From contig NC_086108.1 of the NCBI RefSeq assembly GCF_963921235.1, forward strand, positions 89,158,001-89,222,000: a stretch of 64,000 nt of DNA. The letters run 5' to 3'. This DNA is from Mobula hypostoma. Taxonomy: Eukaryota. Shown one piece after another: positions 4,566 to 51,580 of this stretch (within the stretch, counting starts at the first letter, position 1; every line of letters begins with the position of its first letter). Both the position numbers and the translations under genes were made by a program. Below the pieces are notes generated by a model, which did not search any database, was not told the DNA's origin, and saw nothing but the letters and a program-made list of their open reading frames with translations.

Positions 4566-6802
4566 GGATATAGTGGAAGTTGTATATTTGGATTTTCAGA
4601 AGGTCTTTGACGAGGTGCCACACATGAGGCTTCCTACCAAGATAAGACTCATGGTATTACAGGAAAGTTACTGGCCTATTCAGAGCATAGGCTAATTGGT
4701 AGGAGGCAGCAAGTGGGAAGAAGATGATCCTTTTCTGGTTGGCTGCCAGTGAATAGTGGTATTCTGCAGGGATCGGTGTTGGGACCCCTTCTTTTTATGT
4801 TGTATATCAACGATTTAGATGATGGAATAAATAGCTTTGTTGCCAAGTTTTCAGATGATACAAAGATTGGTGGAGGAGCAGGTAATGCTGAGGAAACAGG
4901 TAGGCTGCAGAAGGACTTGGGTTAGGAGAATGGGCAAGAGAGTGCCAAATGAAATACAATGTTGGAAAATGCGTGGTCATGCACTTTTGTAGTAGAAAAA
5001 AATGTGCAGACAATGTTCTAGACGGGGAGAAAATCCAAAAAATCTGAGATGCAAAGGGTCGTGTGAGTTGTTGAGTAGAACAACCTAAAGGTCAACTTGC
5101 AGATAGAATTGGTGGTGAGGAAGGCAAATGCAATTTTAGCATTAATTTCACGAATTCTAGAATACAAGAGCAGGGATGTGATGCTGAGACTTTATGAGGC
5201 AGTGGTGAGGCCTCACCTTGATTATTGTGAACAGTCTTAGTCTCTTCATCTGAGAAAAGATCTCCTGGCATTGGAGAGGGTTCAGAGGAGGTTCACAAGG
5301 ATGATTCCAGGAATGAAAGGGTTATCATACCAGGAACGTTTGATAGCTCTGGGTCTGTACTCGCTGGAATTTAGAAGGATGGGGGGATCTTATTGAAACC
5401 TTTCGAATGTTGAAAGACCTAAACGGAGTAGACGTGGAAAGGATGTTTCCCATGGTGGGGGAGTTTAGGACAAGAGGGCACAGCCTCAGGATTGAGGTCG
5501 TCCATTCTAAAACAAGATGCGGAGAAATTTCTGTAGTCAGAGAATAGTGAATTTGTAGAATTTATTACCACAGGCAGCTGTGGAGGCTTTGTTATTGGGT
5601 GTATTTAACGCAGAGCTTGATAGGTTCTTGATCTGACATGGCATCAAAAGTTATGGGGAGAAGGCCAGGGAGTTGGACTGAGGGGAAAAACGGATCAGCT
5701 ATGATTGAATGGCGGAGCAGATTCGATGGGCCCAATGTTTTATGGTCTTATGGTCTTAACTGAGGTGATTGCTGGGTGGCATGGTTCAAAGGGCCGGAAG
5801 GTTTCATTCTGCTTTGTAGTCAATAAATAAATAAATAAATGTCAATGAGAAAGTGCCACTTAAAGCACTATTGAAAATATCTTCCACAATTCCATGAATG
5901 ATAGAAAATGTAACTGCATTGGACTTGTCCTGCATTTTGTGGATTCTTAACAAGATTATCTCTGCAATTAACAACCCATTATCACCTCTGAACTGTTAGT
6001 ATGCTAAAATTATAAACATTTACTGCGCAGAAGAGATCATTAAGCTTATCAAATCCGTGCCAGCTCTTTTCTACTGCCGTTTAAAATTATCTCACTGCTC
6101 TTTATGGTGTTTACATTTCCATTATTCAAAGCAAAGCTTGCAAGTAAAATGTTTGAAGAAAAAGCCAGGGAATCACTTTTTCACAGACTTTATTTGTCTT
6201 TATTAATAATGGATTTGACATTTTTTAACAGTTTTATGGTGCTCCCCCAGAAGAAACTCCACATGATAATATGTCTCCAGATCCTGTGATTTTACTTTCC
6301 TTGCTTATGTGGGAAGTTGATTTCTACAATACCTCATGATTTACTCTAATTATAGTGGTTATCGTGCCTTACACCAAGTAGCTAATTAACATTGTTTTGA
6401 GCTATCAGCCTCAAGTTTGATTCATTATTTTTTGTTACAATCTAGGCTAATTTTAGTTATCAAACCCTCAAAACTTTTAGGTCCATTATTGCTTAAACTA
6501 ATGAATTTTTACTATTCTATATTTAAACTCGTGTGTATTGTATAGGTGCAACATGTTTGAACTTAGTTCCAATCTAATATTGAGATATAATAACAACTAA
6601 CAATAATATTAAGTACTTTATTGATCACAAATGGGAAATTATTTCGTTACAGCAGCAACATTTAAAACATATTTAGCAAATAATAATGATAACTAATAAA
6701 GTACAGAATAATAATATACACAATAATAATTTACCAATGCGCAATAAGCTGCCAAAATTATGTACAAAATAATAAAACAGACTTCCCATTCCCATTCTGA
6801 CA

Positions 6803-7348
6803 CTCCAACGGGATTCCACCACTAAGCACATCTTTTCCTCCCTCCCTCTCTCTGCATTCCGCAGGGATCGCTCCCTACACAACTCCCTTGTCCATTCGTC
6901 CCCCCCATCCCTCCCCACTGATCTCCCTCCTGGCACTTATCCGTGTAAGCGGAACAAGTGCTACACATGCCCTTACACTTCCTCCCTTACCACCATTCAG
7001 GGCCCCAAACAGTCCTTCCAGGTGAGGCATCACTTCACCTGTGAGTCGACTGGGGTGATATACTGCGTCCGGTGCTCCCGATGTGGCCTTTTATATATTG
7101 GTGAGACCCGACGCAGACTGGGAGACCGCTTTGCTGAACATCTACGCTCTGTCCGCCAGAGAAAGCAGGATCTCCCAGTGGCCACACATTTTAATTCCAC
7201 ATCCCATTCCCATTCTGACATGTCTATCCACGGCCTCCTCTACTGTAAAGATGAAGCCACACTCAGGTTGGAGGAACAACACCTTATATTCCGTCTGGGT
7301 AGCCTCCAACCTGATGGCATGAACATTGACTTCTCTAACTTCCGCTAG
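6803..7348 (+). pseudogene. PLE GIY-YIG endonuclease domain, stop-free but 5'-truncated
   Basis: AFRRDRSLHNSLV...PCKRNKCYTC...FTCESTGVIYCVRCSRCGLLYIGETRRRLGDRFAEH...VATHFN...LEEQHLIFRLGSLQPDGMN shows the VIY-YIG and Cys/His motifs typical of PLEs. Confidence 0.93.
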
Positions 7349-7640
7349 GCCCCACCTCCCCCTCGTACCCCATCTGTTACTCATTTTTATGCACACATTC
7401 TTTCTCTCACTCTCCTTTTTCTCCCTCTGTCCCTCTGAATATACCTCTTGCCCATCCTCTGGGTCACCCCCCCCCGTCTTTCTTCCCGGACCTCCTGTCC
7501 CATGATCCTCTCGTATCCCCTTTTGCTTATCACCTGTCCAGCTCTCGGCTCCATCCCTCCCCCTCCTGTCTTCTCCTATCATTTTGCATCTCCCCCTCCC
7601 CCTCCAGCTTTCAAATCCCTTACTCACTCTTCCTTCAGTT

Positions 7641-7676
7641 AGTCCTGACGAAGGGTCTCGGCCTGAAACGTCGACT
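7641..7676 (+). ncRNA. Minimal type I hammerhead ribozyme (PLE pseudo-LTR), intact core
   Basis: AGTC-CTGACGA-agggtctcggcct-GAAA-CG-TC^GACT. Stem I is AGTC/GACT, both core boxes are present, stem III is the palindrome ACGT, and the GUC cleavage triplet ends at 7672. Confidence 0.8.
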
Positions 7677-8919
7677 GCACCTCTTCCTATAGATGCTGCC
7701 TGGCCTGCTGCGTTCACCAGCAACTTTGATGTGTGTTGCTTGAATTTCCAGCATCTGCAGAATTCCTGTTGTTTGCGTTTACTGTACTATGATATGTGTT
7801 CTCCTGTTGCACAGAGATGAATTGTTGTATATGCCTCTTACATTTAGTAGGAAAGATTTTCTGTAACGATCTTTGCGACCGTGAAGCTGAATGAGCCTGT
7901 TCGAAAGGGTGTTCCACTGCTTATTCAGTAGGTCATGGAGATGATGTGCCCCATTACCATCATGGATAACAGTTTGTTTAATGACCTCCTCTCATCACTA
8001 ACTCAAAAGAGTTCATGGAGGAGATGTGAAATGTACCTAACAACACCTGCTTATCCAGTTGTGGTTCCTTTTATTCAGGTATTATTGATGGAACCTCATT
8101 GATATTTTAGTTTTTGATACTTGATACAATATAAATTGCTTGTGATAACAGCAAAAATAAGATTTTCTCAACATGTCATTCTGATAAAGGAGGCAACTGG
8201 GAAAAATGTTTCTTTCTGGTAAGATTATCTGACCCATATGCTTGATGAACTGAATTCATGTACTGTACATTCTACTTAAAAGTTAATTGTTTCTTCATAA
8301 CCCCAATGGTAATTTAGACCTCTTTCCTATATCACTTGGTCCAGTTCTTCTTTTAGCAGCCTTCCATATTCCCAGAATTATTGATGTTCACCACATTAAC
8401 CTATCCAGACATAAAAAGCAGCACTTATACTTGGCAATATAAATTGAAAGAGAGCTGTGACCTATTTCACGGTCTCTTGAGTTGTACTTTTTGATGAGTT
8501 CTTATCCTGACGTACAAATTAAGTTTTACTGAAAATAATACAAATTAATTAGGCCTTACTCAAACAATTCAGTAACAAAGAATTTTTATGCAAGCTGATA
8601 AAAAATAAGATAAAGGAAATATATGGAATTAGTTAGTGCAAATAGTAAAGATTTTGAGGTACATACAGTGCAGGTTTAGATCTCCAGTAGGTATATTTCT
8701 ATACCATACCAATTATCGTACAATAATGGCTGTCTAATATTTGGAAAGTAAAAGTTCATTTTAGAAAAAAAATTCTGGTGTACGTATCTTATGTAATTAA
8801 AATTCCAATTAATAGCAAGTACTTGAATTACTGGTTCAAACGTGATTTCCGAAACAGAGGAGTTTTTGGTGCTTGTGTCATGGTTCCATTCATGAAATAT
8901 GATCAGATTAAAGTCATTC

Positions 8920-16277: not shown

Positions 16278-16356
16278 CAGGATTCCCAACCTTGTTTATG
16301 CCATGGATCCTTACTATTAATTGAAGAGTCTGTGGACCCCAGGTTGGAAACCACTC
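16278..16356. mobile_element. Tiny hAT (Charlie-like) MITE
   Basis: CAGGATTCCCAACC...GGTTGGAAACCACT inverted ends resemble the TIRs at 44438/45059. No clear TSD. Confidence 0.55.
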
Positions 16357-16371
16357 CTTCAAACCTCATAC

Positions 16372-18812
16372 AATACTGTTAGGGGTCTAGATGGTTTAGA
16401 GTTTGTAAAATGTGTTCAGGAAAGTTTTCTAAATCAATATATAGAGGTACCAACTAGAGGGGATGCAATATTGGATCTCCTGTTAGAAAACGAGTTAGGA
16501 CAAGTGACGGAAGTGTGTGTAGGGGAGCACTTTGGTTCCAGTGATCATAACACCATTAGTTTCAACTTGATCATGGACAAGGATAGATCTGGTCCTAGGG
16601 TTGAGGTTCTGAACTGGAAGAAGGCCAAATTTGAAGAAATGAGAAAGGGTCTAAAAAGCATGGATTGGGACAGGTTGTTCTCTGGCAAGGATGTGATCGG
16701 TAAGTGGGAAGCCTTCAAAGGAGAAATTCTGAGAGTGCAGAGCTTGTATGTTCCTGTCAGGATTAAGGCAAAGTGAATAGGAATAAGGAACCTTGGTTCT
16801 CAAGGGATATTGCAACTCTGATAAAGAAGAAGAGAGAGTTGTATGACACGTATAGGAAACAGGGAGTAAATAAGGTGCTTGAGGAATATAAAAAGTGCAA
16901 GAAAATACTTAAGAAGGAAATCAGGAGGGCTAAAAGAAGACATGAGGTTGCCTTGGCAGTCAAAGTGAAGGATAATCCAAAGAGCTTTTACAGGTATATT
17001 GAGAGTAAAAGGATTATAAGGGATAAAATTGGTCCTCTTGAAGATCACAGTGGTCGGCTATGTGCAGAACCAAAAGAAATGGGGGGGATCTTAAATGGGT
17101 TTTTTGCATCTGTATTTACTAAGGAAACTGGCATGAAGTCTATGGAATTAGGGGAAACAAGTAGTGAGATCATGGAAACTGCACAGATTGAAAAGGAGGA
17201 GGTGCTTGCTATCTTGAGGCAAATTAAAGTGGATAAACCCCCAGGACCTGACAGGGTATTCCCTCGGACCTTGAAGGAGACTAGTGTTGAAATTGCAGGG
17301 GCCCTGGCAGATATATTTAAAATGTCGGTGTCTACGGGTGAGGTGCCGGATGATTCGAGAATGGTTCAAGTTGTTCCGTTTTTTGAAAAAGGATCGAACA
17401 GAAATCTGGGAAATTATAGGCCGGTAAGTTTGACGTCGCTAGTGGGTAAGTTATTGGAGGGATTTCTAAGAGACAGAATCTACAAGCATTTGGATATACA
17501 GGGACTTATTAGGGAGAGTCAACATGGCTTTGTGCGTGGTAGGTCATGTTTGACCAATCTATTGGAGTTTTTTGAGGAGGTTACCAGGAAAGTAGATGAA
17601 GGGAAGTCAGTGGATGTTGTCTACATGGACTTCAGTAAGGTCTTTGACAAGGTCCCACATGGGAGGTTAGTTAGGAAAATTCAGTTGCTAGGTGTACATG
17701 GAGAGGTGGTAAATTGGATTAGACATTGGCTCAATGGAAGAAGCCAAAGAGTGGTAGTAGAGAATTGCTTCTCCGAGTGGAGGCCTGTAACTAGTGGTGT
17801 GCCACAGGGATCATTGCTGGGTCCATTGTTATTTGTCATCTATATCAATGATCTGGATGATAATATGGTAAATTGGATCAGCAAATTTGCTGATGATACA
17901 AAAATTGGAGGTGTAGTGGACAGTGAAGAAGGTTTTCAAAGCCTGCAGAGGGACTTGGACCAGCTGGAAAAATGGGCTAAAAAATGGCAGATGGAGTTTA
18001 ATACAGACAAGTGTGAGGTATTGCACTTTGGAAGGACAAACCAAGGTAGAACATACAGAGTAAATGGTAAGGCACTGAAGAGTGCAGTAGAACAGAGGGA
18101 TCTGGGAATACAGATATAAAATTCCGTAAAAGTGGCGTCACAGGTAGATAGGGTTGTAAAGAGAGCTTTTGGTACATTGGCCTTTATTAATCAAAGTATT
18201 GAGTATAAGAGCTGGAATGTTATGATGAGGTTGTATAAAGCATTGGTGAGGCCGAATCTGGAGTATTGTGTTCAGTTTTGGTCACCAAATTACAGGAAGG
18301 ATATAAATAAGGTTGAAAGAGTGCAGAGAAGGTTTACAAGGATGTTGCCGGGACTTGAGAAACTCAGTTACAGAGAAAGGTTGAATAGGTTAGGACTTTA
18401 TTCCCTGGAGCGTAGAAGAACGAGGGGAGATTTGATAGAGGTATATAAAATTATGATGGGTATAGATAGAGTAAATACAAGCAGGCTTTTTCCACTGAGG
18501 CAAGGGGAGAAAAAAACCAGAGGACATGGGTTAAGGGTGAGGGGGGAAAAGTTTAAAGGGAACATTAGAGGGGACTTCTTCACACAGAGAGTGGTGGGAG
18601 TATGGAATGAGCTGCCAGACTAGGTAGTAAATGCGGGTTCTTTTTTAACATTTAAGATTAAATTGGACAGATACATGGATGGGCGGTGTATGGAAGGATA
18701 TGGTCCATGTGCAGGTCAGTGGGACTAGGCATAAAATGGTTCTGCACAGCCAAGAAGGGCCAAAGGGCCTGTTTCTGTGCTGTAGTTTTCCTATGGTTTC
18801 GATGGTTTTCTA
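16372..18812 (+). mobile_element. Young 5'-truncated CR1 LINE with near-continuous ORF2
   Basis: ORFs 16321-16776, 16773-18119 (NYRPVSLTS, QHGFVRGRSCLTNL, YMDFSKVFDKVPH, SGVPQGSLLGPLLF, KFADDTK) and 18132-18623; one frameshift and two stops; (ttctatgg)n-like tail. Confidence 0.95.
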
Positions 18813-22765: not shown

Positions 22766-24936
22766 AACTTCACTGGCCTGAAGTAAGAATGTAGAGTTCA
22801 ACTGAGAAACCTAAAGAAGAAATATAATATTAAAATTATTAACTTAATTTATTTTTCATCTGAAAACTAATCCTTACTTATTGTTTGACCGTACAATGTC
22901 AGGGTCACCTTATATACAGACACTCCTGTGCCTAATGTCTCTTTATGGACATGCAGTCAATCTTTGTATATAAGCTATTTTATTTGTTTTTAGTGTGTTT
23001 TATTTTAAATTATCATTGTACTACTTATCTTATTTTTTGTGCTGCATCAGATCTGGAATAACAATTATTTTGTTCCCCTTTACATCTGTGCACTGAAAAT
23101 GACATTAAACAATCTTGAATCTCAGCATTTCCTTATCCTTACAATTTGCACTCAATACCCTAAACAGCTCATTACTGAAATGTCACTAACGAGCTAGCTT
23201 TAATAGATCCCAAGTGATTAAAGACTTCACTTTGCTGACACACTTTACTGTATCTGTGAAGATGCAGATTTTTAAAAATTTTCCCAAGTTCTGATTTTCT
23301 AATATAAGTACAACTTCTGCCAGCAAAATTATAATTTTTGCTAAACATCAAAAATCATGAGCAGCAGATACCAGCTGTCACCCTCCCAGCAAGTGCTCTA
23401 AAAGATATATAAACCTTAATTTTCAATATTATAAAAGCTATGTTTCAATCCAGTGTTCTTCTCCTCATAAGACCATAAGACCATAAGGAACTGAATTAGG
23501 TCATTTGGCCCACCGAGTCTGCCATTTCATCATGGCTGATCCATTTCCCTCTGAAACCCCATTCTCCTGCCTTTTTCCTGTAACCTTTCATACCTTCACT
23601 TAAACGAAAGCCTATCAAGCTCTGCCTTAAGTATACTTAATGAACTGGCCTCCACAGCCACCTTTGGCAATGAATTCCACTGATTCACCATCCCCTGGCA
23701 AAAGAAGTTCCTTCTCATCTCCATTCTAAATGAATGTCCCTCTATTCTGAGGCTGTGCTCTCTAGTGTAGACTCTCCCACTAAAGAAAACATCCTCATCT
23801 CATCCACTCTATGTAGGCCTTTCAACATTCGATAGTTTTCAAAGAGAGCATCCCCGTTCTTCTAAATTCCAGTGAGTACAAACCTAGAGCCATCAAATGC
23901 TACTCATATGATAACGCTTTCATTCCTGGAATCATTATTGCAAACCTCCTCTGAGCCCTCCTCAATTTCATCACATCCTTTCCTAGATAAAGGACCCAAA
24001 ACTCCTCACAATACTCCAAGTGAGACCTCACCAGTGCCTTATAAAGATTTAGCATTACATCCTTGCTTTTATGTTCTAGTCTTCTCCAAATTGATGCTAA
24101 CATTGCATTTACCTTCCTCACAACTGACTCAACCTGCAAGTTAACCTTTAGGGAAACTTGCATGGTGACTCACAAGTCCCTTCGAACCTCATATTTTAGA
24201 AAACAATTTAAGCTTTTTCTCCTTCTGCCAAAGTGTTTGACCATACACTTCCGAACACTGTATACCATCTGCCACATCTTTGCCTATCTGCCTAATCTGT
24301 CTAACTTCTGTAGCTTCTCTGCTTCCTCAAAACTACTTGCTTCTCTACCAGTCTTTGTATTGTCCACAAAATTGGCTACAAACCCTTCAAATTCCTCATC
24401 TAAGTCATTGGTATACAACATAAATAGCAGTCCCAACACTGACTCCTATGGAACATCACTAGCCACAAACAATCAGAGAAGACTCCTTTTAGTCCCTCTC
24501 TTTGCTTCCTGCCAATCAGACAATGCTCTATCCATGTCAGAATCTTTCCTGTAATACCACGGTCTCTTATCTTGCTAAGCAGTCTCATGTGCGGCAGCTT
24601 GTCAAAGGCCTTTTGAAATCCAAGTACACAATATCCACCAATTCTGCTTTGTCAACCCTGCTTGTCATTTCCTCAAAGAATTCCAACAGATCTCTCAGGT
24701 AAGATTTTCCATGAAGGAAATTCTGCTGACTTTGGTCTATTTTATCATGTGGCTCCAAATACCCTAAAATCTTATCCTTAGCAACACCTTCCCAACCACT
24801 GAGGTTATGCTAACAGGCTTGTAACTTCCTTTCTTCTGCTTCCTCTCTCTTCTTGAAGAATTGGGTGAGATTGGAATTTCCCCAGCCCTCCAGATCCATG
24901 GCAAAATCTACTGATTCTAGAAAGATCACTAATAAT

Positions 24937-26623
24937 CTTAACATATTCTACGCAAGATTCGAACAGAAGAGGAGCATCCCGCTCCCTCGGGATGAACTGC
25001 ACCCGGAGGCATCGAGATTCATCGTCACCGAGGAGGAGATTAGAAGGGCCTTCCTGAAGATAAATCCAAGGAAGGCGACGGCCCCAGATGGCGCCCCAGG
25101 ATGGGTTCTCCGGGTCTGTGCAACCGAGCGAGCTGGAGTGTTTGCTGGCATTCTCAGCTGCTCTTTGCTTCAGTCTAAGTTCCCCTCATGTTTTAAGAAG
25201 GCAATGATAATCCCGATGCCGAAGAAGAGCAAGGTGGCATGCCTGAATGACTATCGACCTGTGGCTCTGACATCAATTGCTATGAAGTGCTTCGAGAGAT
25301 TGATTATGGCACACATCAACTACAGCCTACCGGTCAACCTCGACGCTTTGCAATTCACCTACCGGAGCAACAGGTCAACAGCAGATGCCATCTCTCTGGC
25401 TCTACATTCCTCCTTAGAACAGCTGGAGAACAAAGACGCATATGTAAAGCTCCTTTTCATTGACTACAGTTCTGCCTTTAATACCATCTTTCCAAATAAA
25501 CTGATTCCTAAGCTCCGAAACCTGGGCCTTAGCACTCAGATCTGCTGCTGTATCTTCAACTTCCTCACAGACAGGAGCCAGGCTGTAAAAATAGGGGACA
25601 AGCTCTCCTCTACAATCATTCTGAGCACCGGTGCCCCACAAGGCTGTGTACTCAGCCCCCTGCTGTACTCACTGTACACCCATGATTGTGTAATCAAGTT
25701 TCCATCGAACTCAACATATAAGTTTACTAACGACACAACAATTGTAGGCAGTATCTCGGGTAATGATGAGTTTGAGTACAGAGAGGAAATTAAGAACCGG
25801 GTGGCATGGTGTGAAGACAATAACCTATCCCTCAACGTCAGCAAGACGAAGGAATTGGTTGTTGACTTCAGAAGGAGTAGCAGACAGCACGACCCAATTT
25901 ACATCGGTGGTGCGCAAGTGGAACAGGTCAAAAGCTTTAAGTTCCTCGGGGCCAATATCACAAATGACCTGACTTTGTCCAACCAAACAGAGTCCACTGC
26001 CAAGAAGGCCCACCAGTGCCTTTACTTCCTGACAAATCTTCAAAAATTTGGCCTGTCCCCTAAAACCCTCACTAATTTTTATAGATGCACCGTAGAAAGC
26101 ATTCTTCTTGGGTGCATCACAACCTGGTATGGAAGTTGTCCCGTCCAAGACTGGAAGAAGCTGCAGAAGATCGTGAACATGGCGCAGCACATCACACAAA
26201 CCAATCTTCCGTCCTTGGACTCACTTTACACCGCATGCTGTCGGAGCAGTGCTGCCAGGATAATCAAGGACACGACCCACCCAGCCAACACACTTTTCAT
26301 CTCTCTTCCCTCCGGGAGAAGGTTCAGGAGCTTGAAGACTCGTACGGCCAGATTTGGGAACAGCTTCCTTCCAACTGTGATAAGACTGCTGAATGGATCC
26401 TGACCCATATCTGGGCCGTAAGCTCCAAATATCCGGAACCGCATCTCGTTTTTTTTGCACTACCTTACTTTCCATTTTTCTATTTTCTATTTATGGTTTT
26501 TAATTGAAATTTTTAATATTTACTATCAATTTGTAATCCAGGGAGCAGGAAGAGCAGAATCAAAAATCGCTATGATGATTGTACGTTCTAGTATCAATTG
26601 TTTGGTGATAATAAAGTATAAAG
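24937..26623 (+). mobile_element. Rex1/Babar LINE, 5'-truncated, open RT frame
   Basis: LNDYRPVALTSIAMKCFERL, LQFTYRSNRSTADAI, LFIDYSSAFNTI, GAPQGCVLSPLLYSLYT, LNVSKTKELVVDFR and SFLPTVIRLLN; tail ataaagtataaagt. The first ~28 aa of track ORF 24853 are antisense CR1 sequence. Confidence 0.93.
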
Positions 26624-26667: not shown

Positions 26668-27282
26668 TGAGGGGTGATTGATAAGTTCATGGCCCAAGGT
26701 AGAATGAGTCAAGTTTAGAAAACCTAGCATATTTATTTTTGAACACTGTCCCCTCCTACATTTACACACTTAGCCCAACGGTCGTGGAATAGACGGATCT
26801 TGGACCTCCAGAAAGTGCCCACAGCAGAGGTGATTGATAAGTTTCTGGCCTAAGGTAGAAGGAGATGAGTTATACAGCTCTTGTTACATGCACATGCAGT
26901 TCAACTCTTTGAGTGATTACACAGAAAGTTTGAAGTTAATAACTCATCTCCTTCTACCGTAGGCCACAAACTTATCAATCACCCCCCCCGCGATAATAAC
27001 TGATGAGTTATTAACTTCAAACTTTCTGCATAATCACTCAAAGAGTTGACCTGCATGTGCATGTAATGAGAACTGTGTAACTCATCTCCTTCTACCGTAG
27101 GCCACGAACCTATCAATCACCCTTGCTGTGGGCACTTTCTGGAGGTCCAAGATCCGTATGCTCCAGGACCACTGGACTAAGTGTGTAAATGTAGTAGGGG
27201 ACGATGTTGAAAAATAAATGTGCTAGGTTTTCTAACATTGACTCCTTCTACCTTAGGCCACAAACTTATCAATCACCCCTTG
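26668..27282. mobile_element. Palindromic mariner-derived MITE
   Basis: TIR (t)gaggggtgattgataagtt...ggcc(t/c)aaggtagaa; arms ~26668-26948 and 27002-27282 are inverted copies; TA at 27283-27284; mariner C-terminus IRMLQDHWTKCVNVVGDDVEK* at 27152-27217. Confidence 0.9.
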
Positions 27283-27930: not shown

Positions 27931-30900
27931 CATAGAACATAGAACATAGAATAGTACAGTACAGTACAGACCGCTCGGCCCACAATGTTGTGCTGACCCT
28001 TAAACCCTGCCTCCCATATAACCCCCCCACCTTAAATTCCTCCACATACCTGTCTAGTAGTCTCTTAAATTTCACTAGTGTATCTGCCTCCACCACTGAC
28101 TCAGGCAGTGCATTCCACGCACCAACCACTCTCTGAGTAAAAAACCTTCCTCTAATATCCCCCTTGAACTTCCCACCCCTTCCCTTAAAGCCATGTCCTC
28201 TAGTACTGAGCAGTGGTGCCCTGGGGAAGAGGTGCTGACTGTCCACTCTATCTATTCCCCTTAATATCATGTATATCTGTATCATGTCTCCTCTCAGTCT
28301 CCTAAGGGTAAAGCCCTAGCTCCCTTAACCTCTGATGATAATGCATACCCTCTAAACCAGGCAGCATCCTGGTAAATCTCCTCTGTACCCTTTCCAATGC
28401 TTCCACTTCCTTCCTATAGTGATGCGACCAGAACTGGACACAGTACTCTATGTGTGGCCTAACCAGAGTTTTATAGAGCTGCATCATTACCTCGCAACTC
28501 TTAAACTCTATCCTTCGAGTTATGAAAGCTAACACCCCATAAGCTTTCTTAACTACCCTATCTACCTGTGAGGCAACTTTCAGGGATCTGTGAGCATGTA
28601 CCCCCAGATCCCTCTGATCCTCCACACTACCAAGTATCCTGCCATTTACTTTGTACTCTGCCTTGGAGTTAGTCCTTCCAAAGTGTACCACCTCACACTG
28701 CTCCGGGTTGAACTCCATCTGCCACTTCTCAGCCCATTTCTGCATCCTATCAATGTCCCTCTGCAATCTTTGACAATCCTCTACACTATCCACAACATCA
28801 CCAACCTTTGTGTCATCTGCAAACTTGCCAACCCACCCTTCTACCCCGACATCCAGGTCATTAATAAAAATCATGAAAAGTAGAGGTCCCAGTACTGATC
28901 CTTGTGGGACACCACTAGTCACAATCCTCTAATCCGAATGTACTCCCTCCGCCACGACCTTCTGTTTTCTGCAGGCAAGCCAATTCTGAATCCACCTGGC
29001 CTTCTGACTTTCTGAATAAGCCTACCATGTGGAACCTTGTCAAATGCCTTACTAAAATCCATGTAGATCACATCCACTGCACTACCCTCATCTATATGCC
29101 TGGTCACCTCCTCAAAGAACTCTATCAGGCTTGTTAGACATGATCTGCCCTTCACAAAGCCATGCTGACTGTCCCTGATCAGACCATGATTCTCTAAATG
29201 CCCATAGATCCTATCTCTAAGAATCTTTTCCAACAGCTTTCCCACCACAGACATAAGGCTCACTGGTCTATAATTACCCGGACTATCCCCACTAACTTTT
29301 ATGAACAGGGGGACAACATTCGCCTCCCTCCAACCCACAGACAACATTCCCGTGGACAATGAGGACATAAAGATCCTCGCCAAAGGCTCAGCAATCTCTT
29401 CCCTCACCTCGTGGAGCAGCCTGGGGAATATTCTGTCAGGCCCCGGGGATTTATCTGCCTTAATGTATTATAACAACTCCAACACCTCCTCTCCCTTAAT
29501 ATCAACATGCTCCAGAACATCAACCTCGCTCATATTGTCCTCACCGTCATAAATTCCCTCACATTGTTGAATACCGAAGAGAAGTATTCATTGAGGACCC
29601 CACTCACTTCCACAGCCTCCAGGCACATCTTCCCACATTTATCTCTAATTGGTCCTACCTTCACTTCTGTCATGCTTTTGTTCTTCACATAATTGAGGAA
29701 TGCCTTGGGGTTTTCCTTTACCCTACTCGCCAAGGCCTTCTCATGCCCCTTTCTTGCTCTCCTCAGCCCCTTCTTAAGCTCCTTTCTTGCTACTCTATAT
29801 TTCTCAATAGACCCATCTGATCCTTGCTTCCTAAACGTCACGTATGCTGCCTTCTTCCACCTGACTAGATTTTCCACCTCACTTGTCATCCATGGTTCCT
29901 TCACCCTACCATTCTTTATCTTCCTCACCGGGACAAATTTATCCCTAACATCCTGCAAGAGATCCCTAAATATTGACCATATGTCCATAGTACATTTCCC
30001 TGCAAACACATCATCCCAATTCACACCTGCAAGTTCTAGCCTTATAGCCTCATAATTTGTCCTTCCCCAATTAAAAATTTTCCTGTCCTCTTTGATTCTA
30101 TCCTTTTCCATGATAATGTTAAAGGCCAGGGAGCAGTGGTCACTGTCCCACAGATGCTCACCCACTGAGAAATCTGTGACCTGACCCAATTCGTTACCTA
30201 ATACTAGATCTAGTATGACATTCCCCCTAGTCGGCCTGTCAACATACTGTGACAGGAATCCATCCTGGATACACTTAACAAACTCTGCCCCATCTAAACC
30301 ATTGTAACTAATCAGGTGCCAATCAATATTAGGGAAGTTAAAGTCACCCATGATAACATCCGTTATTTTTGCACCTTTCCAAACTCTGCCTCCCAATCTG
30401 CTCCTTGGTATCTCTGCTGCTACCAGGGGGCTTATCGAATGCTCCCAAAAGAGGAACTGCTCCCTTCCTGTTCCTGACTTCCACCCATACTGACTCAAAA
30501 GAGGATCCTGCTACATTACCCATCCTTTCTGTAGCTGTAATAGTCTCCCTGACCAGTAATGCCACCCCTCCTCCCGTTTTTCCGCCCTCTCTATCCCTTT
30601 TAAAGCACTGAAATCCAGGCATATTGAGAATCCATTCCTGCTCTGGTGCCAGCCAAGTCTCTGTAATGGCCACTACATCATGATTCCATGTATGTATCCA
30701 AGCTCTCAGTTCATCACCTTTGTTCCTGATGCTTCTTGCATTGAAGTACACACACTTTAGCCCTTCTACCTTCCTACTTTTACACCCTTTATTCTGCTTC
30801 CCTGTCCTCAAAGCCTCTTTATATATTAGATCTGGCTTTACTCCACGCACTAAACTTGCAGTTCTCGCATGACCTTTATCCTCCTCCACCTCACTATCTG

Positions 30901-32058
30901 CTCTAACACTCTGGTTCCCCTCCCCCTTCAAATCTAGTTTAAACCCCTCGGAGCAGCACTAGCAAACCATCCCGCAAGGATGTTAGTCCCCCTCCAGTTC
31001 AGGTGCAACCCGTCCCATCGGAACAGGTCCCACCTTCCCTGGAACAAGGCCCAATTGTCCAGAAACATGAAGCCCTCCCTCCTGCACCAACTCCTTAGCC
31101 ACGTATTTAGCTGCATTATCTTCCTACTTCTAGCCTCACTAGCACATGGCACGGGTAGAAATCCTCAGACTGCAACTCTAGAGGACCTGTCCTTCAACTT
31201 TGCACCTTACTCTCTAAACTCTCTTTGCAGGACCTCCTCCTCCTTCCTATACACGTCATTGTTCCCTACATGGACCACAACATCTGGGTGCTCACCCTCC
31301 TTCCTGAGAATACTTAGAACTCGATCTGAGATATCACAGACTCAGGCGCCAGGGAGGCAACAGGCCATCCGGGATTTTCGATCTCTCCCACAGAACCTCT
31401 TATCTGTCCCCCTAACTATCGAATCCGCTATCACTAATGCTCTCCTCTTTTCCCTCCTTCTTTTCTGAGCTGAGGGTCCAGTCTCAGTGCCAGAGATGCG
31501 ACCACTGCAACTTGTCCCTGGTAGGTCATCCCCACCAATAGTATCCAAAACAGTATACTTATTGTTGATGGAAACGGCCACAGGGGTGCTCTGCTCTTTC
31601 TGTCTATTCCCCTTCCCTCTCCTGATAGTCATCCAGCTACCTGCCTCCTGACTTTTAGGGGTGACTGACTCCCTGAAACTCCTGTCTATTTCTGCCTCTG
31701 CCTCACAAATGATCCGAAGTGCATCCAGCTCCAGCTCCAGCCCCAGTTTCCTAACTTTGTTTGTCAGGAGCTGCAGCTGGATGCACCTTTTACAGGTGGA
31801 GTCATCAGGGACAATTGTGCTCGCCCTGACTTCCCACATACTGCAAACGGAGAACCCGACTGACCTAACTGCTGCCTCCACTACCTACTTCTAAGTTAAT
31901 TAGATTAATTAAAGGAGCTTGCCTGGCCTTACCTCACTGGGAGCAAGCTCGTCCTCAGCCTCTGCTCGCGGAAGCCTCTCAAGCCAAAGCCTTCCTACTC
32001 TGTCTCCCACTACTCCGTCGCCTGCTCCGTTAATCTGCTCGCTTTTTAAACTCTCCTG
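27931..32058 (-). mobile_element. Full-length CR1 LINE (5'UTR, ORF1, ORF2, tail), few disablements
   Basis: ORF1 ~31881-30934; ORF2 pieces 30931-27920 with APE (CVYFNARSIRNK, VAITETWL, GDFNFPNIDW) and RT (KFADDTK); tail (ttctatg)n at 27931-27950. Confidence 0.95.
30934..31881 (-). pseudogene. CR1 ORF1: Cys motif, coiled coil and SGNH esterase domain
   Basis: CSMWEV...CKRCIQLQLL...LELELDALRII, then VIADSIVRG (GDS-like block), CCLPGA, HVGTN and DGLHLN. Confidence 0.85.
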
Positions 32059-34773: not shown

Positions 34774-35156
34774 TGGACACTGGCTTGGCTGTTTCAGTCA
34801 CTCCACAAAATGAGTTTGAGCAACATTTCAAATAGACTATATGAAGCTTGCAGATATCCAACAGAGGACTTATGCTGGAGAAAAGATAACTCCTGGGGGA
34901 ATGACATTCGTAGCAGTGATATACAACAAACAACAAACTACATTAGGCTTGCATGTCGTAAAAACAGGAGGGCCAGCATTGTAGGTCACGAGTGGCTAAG
35001 ACAACCACAACTTGATTGGAGATCCATTCATCATTTGCATGCCACATATCTTGTAATAGAGTCAACTGAAAGCAAATTTAAAAAGGTACTGGATGATACC
35101 ACAGCGGTATTCAAAGATGGCAGTGGAAAACACAAACATATCAATGGTAAAATGGT

Positions 35157-35377
35157 AGTAACACACACTAAATTCTGGAGGAACTCAGCAACCAGGCAGC
35201 ATCTATGGAAAGATTAAACAGTCAACGTTTCAGCTGAGACCCTTCATCAGAACTTGGTCAGAAATGTCGATTGTTTACTCTTTTCCACAGATGCTGCCTG
35301 GCCTGCTGAGTTCCTCCTGCATTTTGTGTGTATTACTTTGATTTCCAGCATCTGTAGATTTTCTCTTACTTTTGAAA
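35157..35377. mobile_element. Fold-back PLE mini-element
   Basis: Inverted pseudo-LTR arms; TSD GGTAAAAT(G/A)GT at 35146-35156 and 35378-35388; minus-strand hammerhead at 35220-35254. Confidence 0.82.
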
Positions 35378-36182
35378 GGTAAAATAGTGCCAAATGGAAA
35401 TGTCACACCCAAGTTTTGCAAAACCCATTCAGTTGCTTATACCATTGGTGATAAAATAACCAGAGAGCTTGATCGCATGGAGGCTGAGGAATTCTTTCCA
35501 AGATTAACTGGAGCCCATGGGTAACAGCAGTGGTCGCAATAGGCAAGAAGTACAAATTCTTTAAACCAAGCATCACTTACTGTGTTCACACCATATGACA
35601 CTCAAGTATTGCACAAGTGTGCTGAGAAAATTCGGGCAGTGATGGATGCGCCAAGACCAAAGGATGTGTCACAGTTCCAGTCCTCTTTAGGATTTGTCAA
35701 TTTGTAACAGGTTCCTGCCAAACCTGGCTAGTGTTCCACCTCTTGAACTTATCAATACAGATCAAGAAGAACTGGCAATGGAAAAGCAGTGTGAGGTGGC
35801 CTTCAGAAGGAAGTGGTGATGTCAGACAATGTACTCACTAATTATGATCCACATCATCCTGTGAAGCTTGCCATGCCCTATTCAGGATGCCAACCCAGAA
35901 GAAAGGTGTCCAGAGCTGACAAAGCCACTTCCTGCAGTCCCAGAATCAACTCCGATGACCGTCACAGAGGAGGCACCAGAACCTGAGATTGTTTCATAGC
36001 CACAGATCTCTCCGGCCATTGTCAGGAAGGACGTTAACCTACAAGAGTAAGAAATCCTCCACAGCAATTAAATATTTAGCTTCGATGGAACAATTTAAAA
36101 TTTACTATGCTGTGGATATCTGTATTATAGAGAATACTGTGTATACAGTTGAGATGCGTTCTATATTGAGTTGGAGTTTATA

Positions 36183-36967
36183 CAGTGGCATGCAAAAGTT
36201 TGGACACCCCGGTCAAAATTTCTGTTCCTGTGAATAGCTAAGTGAGTAAAAGATGACCTGATTTCTAAAAGGCATAAAGTTAAAGATAGAACAGTGCACC
36301 ACCACTCCAGAGTCTGATAAATCTTCCAGAAGGTCTTTTGCAGTCAAACGGGGGTTTTGATTTGCCTTTCTAACAATCCTACGAATAGTTCTCTCAGAAA
36401 ATTTTCTTGGTCTTCCAGACCTCAACTTGACCTCCACCATTCCTGCTAACTGCCATTTCTTAATTACATTACGAACTGAGGAAATGGCTACCTGAAAACA
36501 CTTTGCTATCTTCTTATAGCCTTTCCTGCTTTGTGGGCATCAATTATTTTAATTTTAGAGTGCTAGGCAGCTGCTTAGAGGAGCCCATGGCTACTGATTG
36601 TTGGGACAAGGTTTGAGAAGTCAGCGTATTTATAAAGCTTTGAAATTTGCATAACCTGGCCTTTCTTAACGATGACTGTGGACTAGCCATAGCCCCAACA
36701 AGCTAATTAAGGTCTGAGACCTTGGTAAAAGTTATCTGAGAGCTCAAATTTCTTGGGGTGCCCAAACCTTTGCATGGTGCTCCTTTCCTTTTTTTTGCTC
36801 TAAAATTGTATAAAACAAAAATAATACACTAATCTTGCTTAAAATGTTGAAGAGAATGTTTCATCTTTAACTTTATGACTCTTGGAGATCAGTTCATCCT
36901 CTACTCACTTAACTACTCACAGTAACAGAAATTTTGACCGGGGTGCCCAAACCTTTGCATACCACTT
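36183..36967 (-). mobile_element. Internally deleted Tc1 element with IR/DR ends
   Basis: TA-CAGTGGCATGCAAAAGTTTGGACACCCCGG...GGGGTGCCCAAACCTTTGCATACCACTT-TA; inner DR at ~36755-36775; transposase N-terminus from ATG at 36588 (MGSSKQL...RSGRPRK). Confidence 0.92.
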
Positions 36968-37169
36968 TAGCTAAGCAGGAAGGAGTGTTGTGCATTTAAT
37001 ATTTCAAGTAGCATTTGAGTAATATTATAAATATATTGTTTAATTAAGCATTCTTGTTCATTAAGTAATTCATTATGGATCATATATAAAATTAAGAGAA
37101 TTGCATACATCATGGCGGTACCACATGATATATGCACACCTCGCTAAAAGTAAAAAAACTAAGTTAGAC

Positions 37170-37354
37170 AAGTAACACACATAAAAGTTGCTGGTGAAAG
37201 CAGCGGGCCAGGCAGCATTTCTAGGAAGAGATACAATCGACGTTTTGGGCCGAGTACCTCTTCCTAGAGATGCTGCCTGGCCTGCTGCGTTCACCAGCAA
37301 CTTCTATGTGTTTTGCTTGAAATTCCAGCATCTGCAGATTTCCTCGTGTTTGAG
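37170..37354. mobile_element. Fold-back PLE mini-element inside the Gypsy 3' LTR
   Basis: Roughly 55-bp inverted arms; 14-bp TSD AAACTAAGTTAGAC at 37156-37169 and 37355-37368. Confidence 0.88.
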
Positions 37355-37737
37355 AAACTAAGTTAGACTCACATTTTGGACTTACTGTCTTTTCTTTGAA
37401 ATTTCTTTAATATTTCGGAGTTACAAAACTTAACACGTTCAATTAGTTGGTATTGGTTTGTATCAAGATATGAATAATTCTTGGCAGAGTACATTACTTT
37501 TGATTTCCAGTTTGCATGTTTGAAGCTTTATTTGTTTCATGTTCATGAATCACATTAACATTCAGCTGCATTTCCACCTACTACAATCCGCAATTTTTTT
37601 TTATCACTTCAGTCCCCTGCTGATTTTAGTTTTTGCAGCCCTAACAGAATAGGGTTAGATGACACACCTTGCATGTAGACTGATGCTATATTTGATTCTG
37701 ATATTTCTGTTATACAACAGAAGCTAAGGAGATTCAT

Positions 37738-37987
37738 AAACGCAAACATGAGGAATCTGCAGATGCTGGAAATCCAAGCAACATACACAAAATTCTGGTG
37801 GAACGCTGCAGGCCAGGCAGCAACTATAGGAAGAAGTACAGTCGACATTTCCGGCCAAGACCCTTCGTCAGGACTAACTGAAAGAAGAGATAGTCCTGAC
37901 AAAGGGTCTTGGCCCAAAATGTTGACTGTACTTCTTCCTATAGATGCTCCCTGGCCTGCTGTGTTCCACCAGCATTTTGTGGGTGTT
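37738..37987. mobile_element. Fold-back PLE mini-element with two divergent hammerheads
   Basis: Roughly 100-bp inverted arms around loop 37877-37890; 15-bp TSD GCTAAGGAGATTCAT at 37723-37737 and 37988-38002. Confidence 0.9.
37840..37875 (-). ncRNA. Minimal hammerhead ribozyme, core boxes intact
   Basis: Reverse complement AGTC-CTGACGA-agggtcttggccg-GAAA-TG-TC^GACT. Confidence 0.6.
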
Positions 37988-38114
37988 GCTAAGGAGATTC
38001 ATGTCTCCTTACAGGTTCTCTTTCATTGTGTGTCTTTTTTCACTATCATCCTTAACGTAAATACATTTTAGAAGAAAGTTGAAGGCACACAATATACTTT
38101 CACATGTTTTACTG

Positions 38115-38462
38115 TATCAGGTTCAGGAACAACCTCAGCCTCATCCTCAGCCTTGAACCTCAGGCTCCTGGGCCAGGATGGATAACTTCATTCATCTCAA
38201 CACTGAACTCATTCCACAACCTATGGACCAACTTTCAAGGACTCTACAATTCAGGTTCTCACTATCATTTATTTACTTTTTTTTAGTATTTTCAGTTCGT
38301 CATTTTTTTGCATACTGGTTTTTTGCAGTCTTCATTTGTGTGTAATTTTTCATTGATTCTACTGGATTTCTTTAAGCCACTATGAATGCCTGCAAGGAAA
38401 TGAAGCTCAGGGTAAGGTATAGTGATGTATATATACCTTGATAGTATATTTACTTTGAACTT
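38115..38462 (+). mobile_element. Rex1-like LINE 3' end
   Basis: aggttcaggaac...; 3'UTR shared with 51180-51500 and 52660-53150; tail tttactttgaacttt. Confidence 0.65.
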
Positions 38463-44437: not shown

Positions 44438-45059
44438 CAGGGTTCCCCAACCTTTTGTGCACCGCGGACCGGTTTAATATTGACAATGTTCTTGTGGACC
44501 GGCCGACCTGGGGTGGTGGTGGGGGGGGTTGTTCAACTAGGGATAAACTCACCTCAATATGTCTTTTACAGTTAAGTTTGGCTTCATCTTCCCGACTATA
44601 CTGTACATACATTATTTCTACTTTATATAGGCTGTGTATTTATCATATCATTCCTGCTTTTACTATATGTTAGTGTTATTTTCGGTTTTATGTGTTATTT
44701 GGTATGATTTTGTAGGTTTTTTTTGGGTCTGGGAATGCTCAAAAATTTTTGCCATATAAATTAATGGTAATTGCTTCTTCACTTTACGCCATTTTGGCAC
44801 GAAAGGTTTCATAGGAATGCTCTACCTTAGTGGGGGAAATACGGGACAAGGGCTGTCCCGTATGGGACAAACCAATTTAGCCCAATGTATGGGATGTCCC
44901 GGCTAATACGGGACAGTTGGCAACCCTATGTTCAAGTTCAACAGTACGTGACAGGGAATGAGGAAAGGTGCAGCTGGCTCATTATTGTTTCTTCGCAGCC
45001 CGGTAGCACATGCTTTGCAGCCCGGTACTGGTCGATGGCCCAGTGGTTAGGGACTGCTG
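44438..45059. mobile_element. Composite hAT MITE inserted in gag
   Basis: TIRs CAGGGTTCCCCAACC and GGTTAGGGACTGCTG; perfect 8-bp TSD ATTTACTT at 44430-44437 and 45060-45067. Confidence 0.92.
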
Positions 45060-45086
45060 ATTTACTTGCTCTTCTCAACCAGCTTT

Positions 45087-45552
45087 CTGTCCCAATACAG
45101 CAACCTTGTGCCAATACAGTAACCCTGTCCCAATACAGCAACCCTGTCCCAGTACAGCAACCCTGTCCCAATACAGCAACCCTGTCCCAGTACAGCAACC
45201 CTGTCCCAGTACAGCAACCCTGTGCCAATACAGCAACCCTGTCCCAGTACAGCAACCCTGTCCCAGTACAGCAACCCTGTCCCAATACAGCAACCCTGTC
45301 CCAGTACAGCAACCCTGTCCCAGTACAGCAACCCTGTCCCAATACAGCAACCCTGTCCCAGTACAGCAACCCTGTCCCAGTACAGCAACCCTGTCCCAAT
45401 ACAGCAACCCTGTGCCAGTACAGCAACCCTGTGCCAGTACAGCAACCCTGTCCCAATACAGCAATCCTGTCCCAGTACAGCAACCCTGTCCCAGTACAGC
45501 AACCCTGTGCCAATACAGCAACCCTGTCCCAATACAGCAACCCTGTGCCAGT
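45087..45552 (+). repeat. 19-bp minisatellite, ~24.5 copies
   Basis: Unit CTGT(C/G)CCA(A/G)TACAGCAACC in tandem with no spacers. Confidence 0.97.
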
Positions 45553-48136
45553 CAACCTCCTCCCTCAGAGCCCCAGATTCTGGTGCCTGAATGTTTCAAT
45601 GGATCCCCAACCCAATGCTGCAACATCCTGTCCCAGTGTGTCTTGCATTTCGAGCACCAGCCATCTCTGTCCTTTATGGAAAGAGGCAAGATGGCCTTTG
45701 TCATCCTCTCTTGACTGGGCATGCTCTGACCTCGGCCACCTCTAACTGGACGATAATACCTCCATTTGGAATAGATATGAGGATTTCACCAGTGAGATGC
45801 ACAAGTGTCTGGAAGGGGAAGTGAGGCAGCAGATCAAAGGCTTTGCCCGTGTCAAGTCTTATGCTCAGTGCTGGATTACACTGTGGAATTCAGGATCATC
45901 GCGGCAGGGTGAGGTAGGAATGTGGAAGAACTGCTGGCCACTTACCATTACAGCCTCTTGGAGCACATGAAATATGAGCTGTTTACTCAGGAGATGCTCA
46001 CCAACTTCAAAAGCCTCACTCTGGCCCTCCATACTGACAAGCATCTTATGGAATGACCCTCCAGATCATTTACCAGACCCACAGTTCCATTCTCTGAACC
46101 ATTTCAGACTGCAATAACACTCCTCAGCAATGCCTGCAGAAGTGGCAGCTAAGGAGAGCTCCCTTAACGCCCCAAGAGTGGAAGTGTTGAAGGAGAAATA
46201 ACTTGTGTTCCTACTGCGGAGCAGCTGACCACTGACGCATCAAATACCCACTGCTTCCAGGAAGTAGCATCAACATGAGGGGATTCTCTCTGTAAGCTCC
46301 CCCTGGCCTCTCATTCCAACACCATAGCCCAACCTCACTCTCACCACACCCTTGTGCACAGGAGGCTCTGGTAGATTCCAGCGCAGCAGGCAATCTTTCT
46401 GGACTGAACTCTGTGTAAGCAGCTTGGACTTCCTACCAAGCCTATCTCTAACCTCCTTCTGCATCATAGCTATTGAAAAGCACACCTAAAGGTTTGGGAT
46501 GGTCAGAGTGCTCACGGCCTGTCCATCCAGTTCCTCCTGATCGACTCACCCAAACTCCTCTCATCTTGGGTTACCTCTGGCTCTCTATTCATGACTCCTA
46601 TTTCACCTGGTCACCTGGCTCACTGCCTAGTTGGGGACCCAGCTGCCCGGCCACCTGCCTGTAACCTCAGGTGACTTCCCCCCTTAAATCTATGGAGATG
46701 GAGGAAACCCTCAACATCACCAAACTCCCACAGGAATACCCCAGCCATTGCAGGGTTCTTCTTTGTCAAAAAGAAAGATGGGATCTTCATCCCTGCATCA
46801 ACTACCATGGACTCAACAATACTATTATAAAGAACCGTTACCCTCTCAGTTACCATTGCCATTATCCAGAAGATGGATAGTGTATTTGAAACACTCCACA
46901 GGCCCAGATCTTCTCCAAACTGGATCTACGGGGTGTGTACAACCTGATCCGCATCTGCCAGGGCATGAGTGGAAGACAGTGTTTATAGCACCCACTGGCC
47001 AATACAAATACTTGGTGATACCATTCAGAGTTTCCAACAATCCAACCTTTTTCCAAGCCTTCATTCACAAAATGGTAGACATTCATTTACATCGATGACA
47101 TCCTTATCTTTTCCAAGGATCTTCAGGACCATGTCTGCTACATCCATTCAGTCCCTCAGCATCTCCTCAAATAATAACTGTACTGCAAGTTAGAAAAATG
47201 CCAGTTCCACATGCTGGTCATTGCTTCTTGGATTACATCTTTTCACTCCAAGGCATAGCCATGGCCATAGAGAAAGTGCACACCATCATTCAATGGCTTC
47301 GACCACATTCCCTCAAATAGCTATAGTGCTTCTTGGGTTTCAACTTCTATTGTTGTTTCATCTGAAATTACAGCCAAATTGCTGCTGGTCCCACCTCCCT
47401 CACTGAATCACCTACCTCATGACAGTTCTCCAAAGTGGCCCACATCACTGCCCTCCCCAGACGTCCATCAGTCACTAAGACAGCGGTCCTGGTTCTCCAA
47501 CGTGTGCCATAGTTCGACTCCATGGTTTTCCTCGGTACATTGTGTCAGACCAGGGCCCACAATTTGCCTCACACTTCTGGTGAGCCTTCTGTTCCCTCCT
47601 CCGCACCTCAGTGAGTTTCTTCTCTGGCTTTCATCGTGGACCAGCAGGCAGTCACAAAGAGCCAATCAGCAATTGGAGAAGTTCCAGCAATGCTTCCCCC
47701 TCTCTTACTCTTCCACATGGAAGAAATATCCGCTCTTGTGTGCATTTGGATGGATAGAGGGCTATGGTAACCCTAGGTAATTTCTAAGTAAGTGCATGTT
47801 CCGCACAGCATTGTGGGCCAAAGTGCCTGTTTATTGTGTTGTAGACTTTCTATGTCTTCATTGTTTTATGTTTTACTGTGATAGTTTAAGATCTGATCTG
47901 TATGTGTTCCCTTGTGATAAATGGATGTTTCTAAAGTGCTCTCTGTGTTTGCAAATGGATTGCCAAGATTGGAGAACAGTTACTGCTGACAGGCCAACCA
48001 CCAGTGGTGCCCAGCTGGACTACTCTGGCCTGGGCCCTGGGGACCATGTCTGTTCATCCAAGATCTGCCCCTGCACACTGACCCCCGCAAGCTCTTGCCC
48101 CAGTACATTGGTCCCCTCAAGATTACCCATTGCATC

Positions 48137-51034: not shown

Positions 51035-51580
51035 GAAAACATGAAATGCTGTCATAGGAAAGCAGCATCCATCATCAGAGGTCCCCACCAGCCAGGTCAT
51101 GCTCTCTTCTCATTACTGCCGTCAGATAGGAGGTACAAGAGCCTCGGAACTCACACAACCAGGTTAAAGAAGAGTTACTACCCCTCAACCATCAGGTTCC
51201 AGGATAAAAGGGGACAACTGTACTCATTTGCTCCATTATTGAAATGTTCCTCCAACCAATAATCTTACTTTAAGGAACACACACAAAGTGCTGGAGGAAT
51301 TCAGCAGGCCAGGCAGCATCTATGGAAAAAAGTACAGTCGATGTTTCGGGCCAAGACCCTTCAGCAGGACTTTACCATAAGGGCTCTTTATCTCATTATC
51401 TAATACTCTCATTATTTATTGCTATTTGTTTATATTTGTAGTTGCATAGTTTGTTGTCTTCCACACTCTGGTTGCTCTTTCATTGGTCCTGTTATATTTA
51501 CTTGGTCTGGAGGAATGTTGTTTCATTTGGCGGTATACATGTGCACATTTGAACAGCAATCAAACTGAATTTGACCTTGA
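51035..51580 (+). mobile_element. Rex1-like 3' end with an inserted PLE pseudo-LTR (51276-51372, minus)
   Basis: KAASIIRGPHQPGHALFSLLPSDRRYKSL...KSYYPSTIR; PLE piece with hammerhead remnant CTGCTGA. Confidence 0.82.

Follow-up and report, generated by a model that had tools for sequence, protein, structure and literature searches.

The window, by which we mean the whole stretch of DNA analysed here, comprises 64,000 nt of Mobula hypostoma (GCF_963921235.1, NC_086108.1:89,158,001-89,222,000, forward strand). Three fold-back insertions made of the ends of Penelope-like retroelements (PLEs) lie within 3 kb of one another and none is found elsewhere in the 64 kb: the one at the centre of this study, named E1 (37738-37987), and two companions, E2 (37156-37368) and E3 (35143-35388). 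These features, together with a parent-type PLE that served as the coordinate reference, are collected in Table 1. LINE-type frames are abundant in the window, and a Pfam scan for host genes, covering 70 of the 89 frames of at least 75 aa at 30-64 kb and liable to miss short exons, matched four of the 70, all of mobile-element type. Long, partly broken reverse transcriptase frames occur at 16321-18623, 24814-26403 and 28302-31884, which we take from their motifs to be LINE-type; a GDSL-esterase-like match lies upstream of the last of them. An MITE-like element at 26670-27280 has 279-nt inverted arms (89%) that are 53 nt apart, internal copies of its end motif and ends that we presume to be Tc1/mariner-like. 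Closer to E1, at 36181-36969, lies an internally deleted Tc1-type transposon whose inverted ends measure 113 nt, with a 21-nt direct repeat in the right one and weak matches to Sleeping Beauty/Tc3 HTH domains on the minus strand. Finally, the tandem array at 44900-45600 has a unit of ~57 nt, in which several frames are open on both strands.

Table 1. Positions in the window of the three fold-back insertions, their parts and the reference element.
Feature	Position	Strand	Description
Parent-type PLE	6776-7780	+	5'-truncated; GIY-YIG frame, 3' UTR, hammerhead motif and tail; coordinate reference
E3 (older)	35143-35388		~218-nt insert; 14-bp TSD with 2 mismatches; tail on right arm; 14-nt loop; 2-nt microhomology
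E2	37156-37368		185-nt insert; perfect 14-bp TSD; tail on right arm; 19-nt loop; 1-nt microhomology
E1 left TSD copy	37723-37737		15 bp; single copy in the empty allele of organism B
E1 left arm	37738-37894	-	5'-truncated PLE 3' end, 157 nt, 3' end leftward
PLE tail	37738-37776	-	39 nt, on left arm only, from alignment
Minimal type-I hammerhead motif	37840-37875	-	Core boxes intact; predicted cut between 37844 and 37843
E1 inversion junction	37873-37894		4-nt inverted match (37873-37876/37891-37894) around 14-nt loop (37877-37890)
E1 right arm	37891-37990	+	5'-truncated, tail-less PLE 3' end, 100 nt
Decayed hammerhead motif	37892-37927	+	G8 and G12 to A at CpG sites; cleavage triplet altered
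E1 right TSD copy	37988-38002		15 bp

The E1 insert is 250 nt long and is framed by the two copies of its target-site duplication (TSD), an exact 15-nt direct repeat, as the sequence-only reading of this DNA had proposed. When the local 3 kb was resampled 2000 times under a Markov-1 model, only 7 of the resulting sequences contained any exact 15-mer repeat within 400 nt. The inverted repeat extends over 103 nt (37777-37879 and 37888-37990) at 88% identity, and 11 of 100 positions differ when 37777-37876 and 37891-37990 are compared without gaps. That reading had described two inverted arms of about 100 bp separated by a loop at 37877-37890. The inverted repeat is indeed present; however, the arms are not equal, since the left one bears a 39-nt tail that the right one lacks, and the loop is not a spacer, as it consists of PLE sequence that belongs to the left arm, which reaches 37894 and so extends 4 nt into the right arm. 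Contigs of other copies stay aligned up to 37894 and beyond it continue into upstream PLE sequence, while copies of the right arm start at 37891-37892. Microhomology of at least 4 nt is expected at 1.5% (0.015) of random breakpoint pairs in the E1 sequence. At the opposite end, the right arm shares its last 3 nt with the start of the right TSD copy. The two strands of E1 fold at -179.6 and -177.3 kcal/mol (z = -20.7 and -18.7), stabilities that none of 200 shuffles equalled for either strand; folding thus supports the expectation of a long hairpin in read-through transcripts from either strand.

The left arm matches 16 places in the window, itself included, the best other match being the PLE end at 6776-7780. 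Identity to that end (7627-7781) is 89% over 156 nt (86-89% across comparisons), and the right arm is 84% identical to the same end over 105 nt. The frame of the parent-type element (6776-7348, with a stop at 7348) encodes a CX4CX2C linker ahead of a GIY-YIG domain (PF01541, E = 7.7e-5 in Pfam). As the arms match the 3' end of a GIY-YIG element, both are PLE 3' ends that point outward, which bears out the suggestion that E1 arose by retrotransposition in spite of its resemblance to a MITE. A CX2-5CxxC linker upstream of the GIY-YIG core, with two cysteines within the core, characterizes the Neptune and Nematis clades (Craig et al., PMC8557442), and the parent-type frame carries both a linker of this form and the two core cysteines. 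No PLE reverse transcriptase (RT) core was recovered from the 64-kb window. We take vertebrate PLEs with the CX2-5CxxC linker to be Neptune, and the label "Neptune-type" used here is based on this linker. E1 displays the features of an EN+ PLE insertion: the 3' end of a GIY-YIG element, a head-to-head inverted copy, a one-sided 39-nt tail, and a TSD with an empty site (see below). A tail of 30-40 bp is an optional part of PLEs (PMC8557442, PMC11167929). Taken together, these data make it very probable that E1 is a single, dead and strongly 5'-truncated insertion of a Neptune-type PLE.

Whether the arms arrived together was addressed by comparing region 36950-38450 with contigs from 4 of the 24 runs listed, each allele being represented by a single contig from a single run. 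In the contig of organism B, 37722 is joined to 37988 without any letter between them, leaving one copy of the target and no insert; in that of organism C, 37732 is joined to 38016, which is also an empty site with 18 more nt missing. Because organisms B and C carry the empty site, both arms arrived together, and the proposal of one insertion event is upheld by the joint absence of the arms. In organism D, the contig continues from the left flank into the tail for 44 nt, so that at least the left junction is present, and the right flank is uncovered. Two separate PLE insertions, with the later one placed at the truncated end of the earlier, would account for the unequal decay of the arms, as all four CpG transitions that distinguish them (4/4) fall on the right arm of E1, and would agree with organism D, where only the left junction is seen and the right flank has no cover. 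However, a single TSD frames both arms and none lies at their junction, the arms are absent together in organisms B and C, and the same build is repeated three times in 3 kb. We therefore consider two insertions very unlikely.

The two companions share this build. One tailed arm and one arm that ends tail-less are found in 3/3 fold-backs of the window, with TSDs of 14-15 bp. The tails of E2 and E3 are on the plus arm; tail and loop belong to the same arm in E1 and to different arms in E2 and E3. The loops of E1, E2 and E3 measure 14, 19 and 14 nt and the microhomologies 4, 1 and 2 nt. When expressed in positions of the reference element, the junctions are 7622|7640 in E1, 7657|7677 in E2 and 7641|7657 in E3, and all differ. 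E2 is absent from organism B, which has 71 letters where the window has 263. The remaining 10 of the 16 PLE termini in the window are unpaired. One solo tail-less PLE end on the minus strand (51265-51382, ~100 nt) starts exactly at hammerhead helix I and has a possible 11-bp TSD with 2 mismatches. The subfamily to which E2 belongs (bin 37154-37204) is nearly absent from organism C (depth 421) and very deep in organisms A, B and D, a contrast which indicates that PLE subfamilies expanded in some lineages only. A base shared by both E2 arms at 37221 was considered as a sign of a single template and discarded, as most of the X1 and X8 depth carries it.

These comparisons also bear on transposase-driven movement of a MITE or fold-back DNA transposon, which E1 resembles in being short, non-coding and TSD-flanked with long inverted repeats. 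However, the inverted repeats are not terminal, as 39 extra nt lie on one side, the sequence is that of a retroelement 3' end, the TSD length varies among the three fold-backs (14, 14 and 15) and their junctions are not shared. Transposase-mediated movement is accordingly given almost no weight.

E1 carries two back-to-back hammerhead motifs. At gathering scores, Rfam gave no match across the 64-kb window; the motifs are therefore called hammerheads by comparison with those of Cervera and De la Pena 2014 (PMC4209133). The minus-strand motif keeps its core boxes and the extra base after position 9. Its position and core boxes were correctly given in the sequence-only reading, but its description as intact was overstated, since the G10.1-C11.1 pair has become G-G and the helix-III palindrome (15.2-16.2) has changed from CG to UG. 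The CG palindrome is needed for the dimer fold of the hammerhead, and minimal hammerheads do not cleave as monomers in vitro in the assays described there (PMC4209133). The plus-strand motif was rightly placed and rightly called decayed, both of its core boxes being mutated. Both core boxes are kept in 3 of the 12 termini that cover the core. In the folded read-through transcript of E1 the hammerhead core is unpaired with a probability of at most 0.01, and imposing the hammerhead helices costs 57 kcal/mol; folded alone, the 44-45-nt motifs were no better than shuffles (z = 0.63, -1.43 and -0.36). Both ribozymes of E1 thus look dead, and the modelled hairpin would bury them.

The hammerheads are passengers in E1. 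Because the motif sits 60-100 nt inside the tail-less PLE end, any arm that is long enough carries it, and E1 has two since its arms are long enough to include the motif. E2 has no complete motif and E3 has one; paired ribozymes are therefore not part of the build, and a class of elements defined by two hammerheads finds no support in the companions. Cleavage by the ribozyme is dispensable for insertion by the anole PLE protein (PMC11167929). A turn at the ribozyme cut site was rejected for E1, in which the junction lies 30-50 nt from the predicted cut. Just upstream of helix I, a pyrimidine tract ending in CAG (7630-7641, in termini of several subfamilies) resembles a splice acceptor; in the Penelope element of D. 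virilis, an intron ends at helix I of the hammerhead (PMC4209133).

The sequence-only reading regarded E1 as its best candidate for an undescribed class of small elements, and proposed that a junction shared between copies would distinguish a self-propagating family from independent events. The architecture has been published (PMC3846280, PMC8557442, PMC4209133), and the junctions, examined in the three fold-backs of the window and in contig pieces, lean against a family: 3/3 differ, and none of the 32 pieces listed (of 256,608) spans 37891-37894. In a self-propagating, non-autonomous mini-family, the PLE protein would insert complete transcripts of an older fold-back, and all copies would have one junction. 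Old-looking arms within a perfect TSD are what the copying of an aged fold-back should give. In addition, a turn at helix I recurs at a depth of 192 in X8 and at least 130 in X1, compared with about 8-10 for single-copy flank. However, helix I is itself an inverted repeat, and independent turns there are therefore expected; in the joint table, a small family cannot be told apart from repeated turns. The recurrent helix-I junction occurs in organisms A and D, through repeated use of the microhomology or as a small family.

Several further observations speak against propagation of E1 as such a unit. Behind 37894 the alignment is left by at least 263 contigs in X1, 67 in X5 and 181 in X8, and before 37892 by 185 in X5 and 375 in X6, other copies continuing into ordinary PLE sequence on both sides. 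The best-supported joints among those listed reach a depth of 211, against 10^5-10^6 on the arms and about 8-15 on unique flank. Moreover, the far end of E1 is the canonical tail-less end, which the RNA of a fold-back would present only as antisense. As contig depth is not copy number, joints were judged among those listed and contigs break in repeats, this junction evidence is moderate. The E1 junction pattern and the arm pattern each gave no match in metagenome contigs, and the arm pattern matched one locus (L001) in viral contigs, these collections being unlikely to hold the DNA of this animal, so that the blanks carry no weight. The literature covered contains no description that we could find of a palindromic PLE mini-family, although supplements and Repbase/Dfam, which lie outside that coverage, may list such families. 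On balance, we regard a mini-family as improbable; E1 is probably a tidy case of the known PLE insertion pattern and not a new kind of element.

How, then, are two outward-pointing copies of the same 3' end inserted at once? We lean, by a modest degree, towards a route in which both target nicks are primed and the two cDNAs are then joined. The GIY-YIG endonuclease would nick the two target strands 15 nt apart, the spacing given by the TSD and the empty site. The 3' end of the top strand would then prime reverse transcription at the tail end of the PLE RNA, which is where the tailed arm ends, and the 3' end of the bottom strand would prime at an internal, tail-less site, helped by the 3-nt match found at the end of the other arm. 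Both cDNAs would be short, ending after 100-160 nt. The longer would anneal by its 3' end to its sister through the 4 nt seen at the junction, and each would be copied back to the target, so that a palindrome with head-to-head halves and a loop of 14 nt results. Two distinct RNA copies may have served as templates, and the arms would then be unlike from birth, as a statistically weak excess of divergence suggests (see below). In support of such a route, the purified PAc protein, of the Poseidon clade, cuts both strands of the target and extends them in vitro; its reverse transcription begins at two neighbouring positions on the RNA, one at each edge of the tail, and the protein is a predicted dimer (Frangieh et al. 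2024, PMC11167929).

The main alternative, less probable, is a snap-back in which a single cDNA folds through the 4-nt inverted match and copies itself, the endonuclease later trimming one end at the tail boundary, either ahead of its joining to the target or in the course of it; the fold-back would be a one-off by-product. This explains directly why a stem of exactly 4 bp and a loop of 14 nt make up the E1 junction, why the loops of the three elements are as short as 14, 19 and 14 nt, and why subfamily traits are common to the two arms of each element. Self-priming has been invoked for palindromes where inverted PLE copies meet (Arkhipova et al. 2013, PMC3846280), and the tail has been ascribed to resolution by the endonuclease (Craig et al. 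2021, PMC8557442). The position of the tail argues for two primers, as in E2 and E3 it is carried by the arm that would be the self-copy. A cDNA begun at the tail-less site cannot gain a tail by copying itself, so the placement of the tail in E2 and E3 favours priming at both nicks, and a snap-back requires an extra trimming step. Stems of only 1-2 nt in E2 and E3 also sit poorly with it. On the other side, the stop points of the two arms are 14-19 nt apart in 3/3 fold-backs, which a snap-back predicts directly and which two cDNAs would produce only if the polymerases move in step.

Divergence of the arms was used to ask whether they were identical at birth. This test is post hoc, and it excludes E3 because that element has no dated empty site. 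Within E1 (37777-37990) and E2 (37169-37319) taken together, the paired arms differ at 18 of 164 sites; for the flanks against the allele of organism B that lacks the insert, the figure is 28 of 632 (Fisher P = 0.004). When CpG transitions are left out, the count for the arms is 14/164 (P = 0.048). The TSD pairs of E1 and E2 show no difference over 29 positions (0/29, P = 0.08). Arms identical at birth, as a snap-back would make them, fit these figures poorly. However, the excess fades if arms mutate faster than flanks: at 1.5 times the rate, P is 0.03 for all sites and 0.21 without CpG transitions, and at 1.5-2 times it spans 0.03 to 0.21 for all sites. The G+C content is 48-49% in the arms and 31-41% in the flanks. 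Against priming at both nicks, the arms of E1 are mutual nearest neighbours among 15 termini (0.89, the next being at 0.82-0.85); this may reflect a single template or, alternatively, a shared subfamily. Private non-CpG changes number 5 on the arm that carries the loop and 2 on its partner, in E1 as in E2. Editing of the template from A to I was rejected as a source of the differences, since no A-to-G change relative to the reference is present in any arm of E1 or E2. The preference for priming at both nicks rests on three elements and on in vitro work with a protein of another PLE clade.

Similar arrangements have been described in other systems. L1 twin priming, reportedly described by Ostertag and Kazazian in 2001, is said to involve priming at both target nicks, inversion at microhomology and a single TSD, as proposed here for E1; its inverted part is, however, said to be upstream, non-overlapping sequence, whereas the arms of E1 are the same 3' end. 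Among PLEs, an inverted pseudo-LTR with a one-sided tail and a TSD is the typical structure (PMC8557442, PMC3846280, PMC8969392), and the statement that PLE insertions often carry an inverted partial pseudo-LTR is correct as published (PMC3846280, PMC8557442). The closest likeness is with Pen2a/Pen2 of Adineta vaga (PMC3846280; scheme in the legend to Fig. 2 of PMC8557442), which have head-to-head ends, a tail on one side, one TSD and a short offset at the junction. E1 differs from them in that nothing is inserted but two ends of 100-160 nt and that both arms include the hammerhead; in addition, its TSD is 15 bp long, compared with 8-10 bp in rotifer PLEs (PMC3846280). E1 represents the shortest form of such inverted insertions.

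The motifs of E1 resemble the minimal type-I hammerheads of metazoan PLEs in their core boxes, the extra base after position 9 and the lack of a helix-III loop (PMC4209133). Dual minimal hammerheads on opposite strands, ~100-700 bp apart, are reported from Schistosoma mansoni in a text that is silent, in its available part, on flanks and TSDs (PMC4209133); those of E1 are 16 nt apart and both depart from conserved features. PAc fits the one tailed and one tail-less end of E1 by its action on two strands, its two start sites and its predicted dimer (PMC11167929), but it belongs to the Poseidon clade, whereas the parent of E1 has the Neptune/Nematis linker, and inverted products are no part of the PAc results in the available text. 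Finally, the non-LTR retrozymes (bioRxiv 10.64898/2026.07.22.740005) are, like E1, short, non-coding and PLE-derived with a type-I hammerhead. They are, as described in the accessible part of that preprint, head-to-tail tandems with complete ribozymes on the same strand; in contrast, the copies in E1 are inverted, mutually antisense and mutated, which sets E1 apart from retrozymes.

Taken alone, E1 matters little, being a dead scrap of a very abundant retroelement, and scraps of this kind can be mistaken for MITEs in repeat annotation. There is a slim chance that some fold-backs, E1 included, were copied whole from older ones and form a low-copy, palindromic, MITE-like class with a fixed junction that yields long dsRNA. 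If such a family is real, whole-copying would have left its mark in the perfect TSD that encloses arms more divergent than expected, and a shared-junction family would add a new type to the non-autonomous retroelements and would also be a source of long RNA hairpins. The value of E1 lies in its being a clean record of PLE integration, the mechanism of which is called unresolved in the literature (PMC8557442, PMC11167929). Genome-wide counts of which arm bears the tail, of the distance between the arm stops and of the likeness of the arms at birth could separate snap-back from priming at both target nicks.
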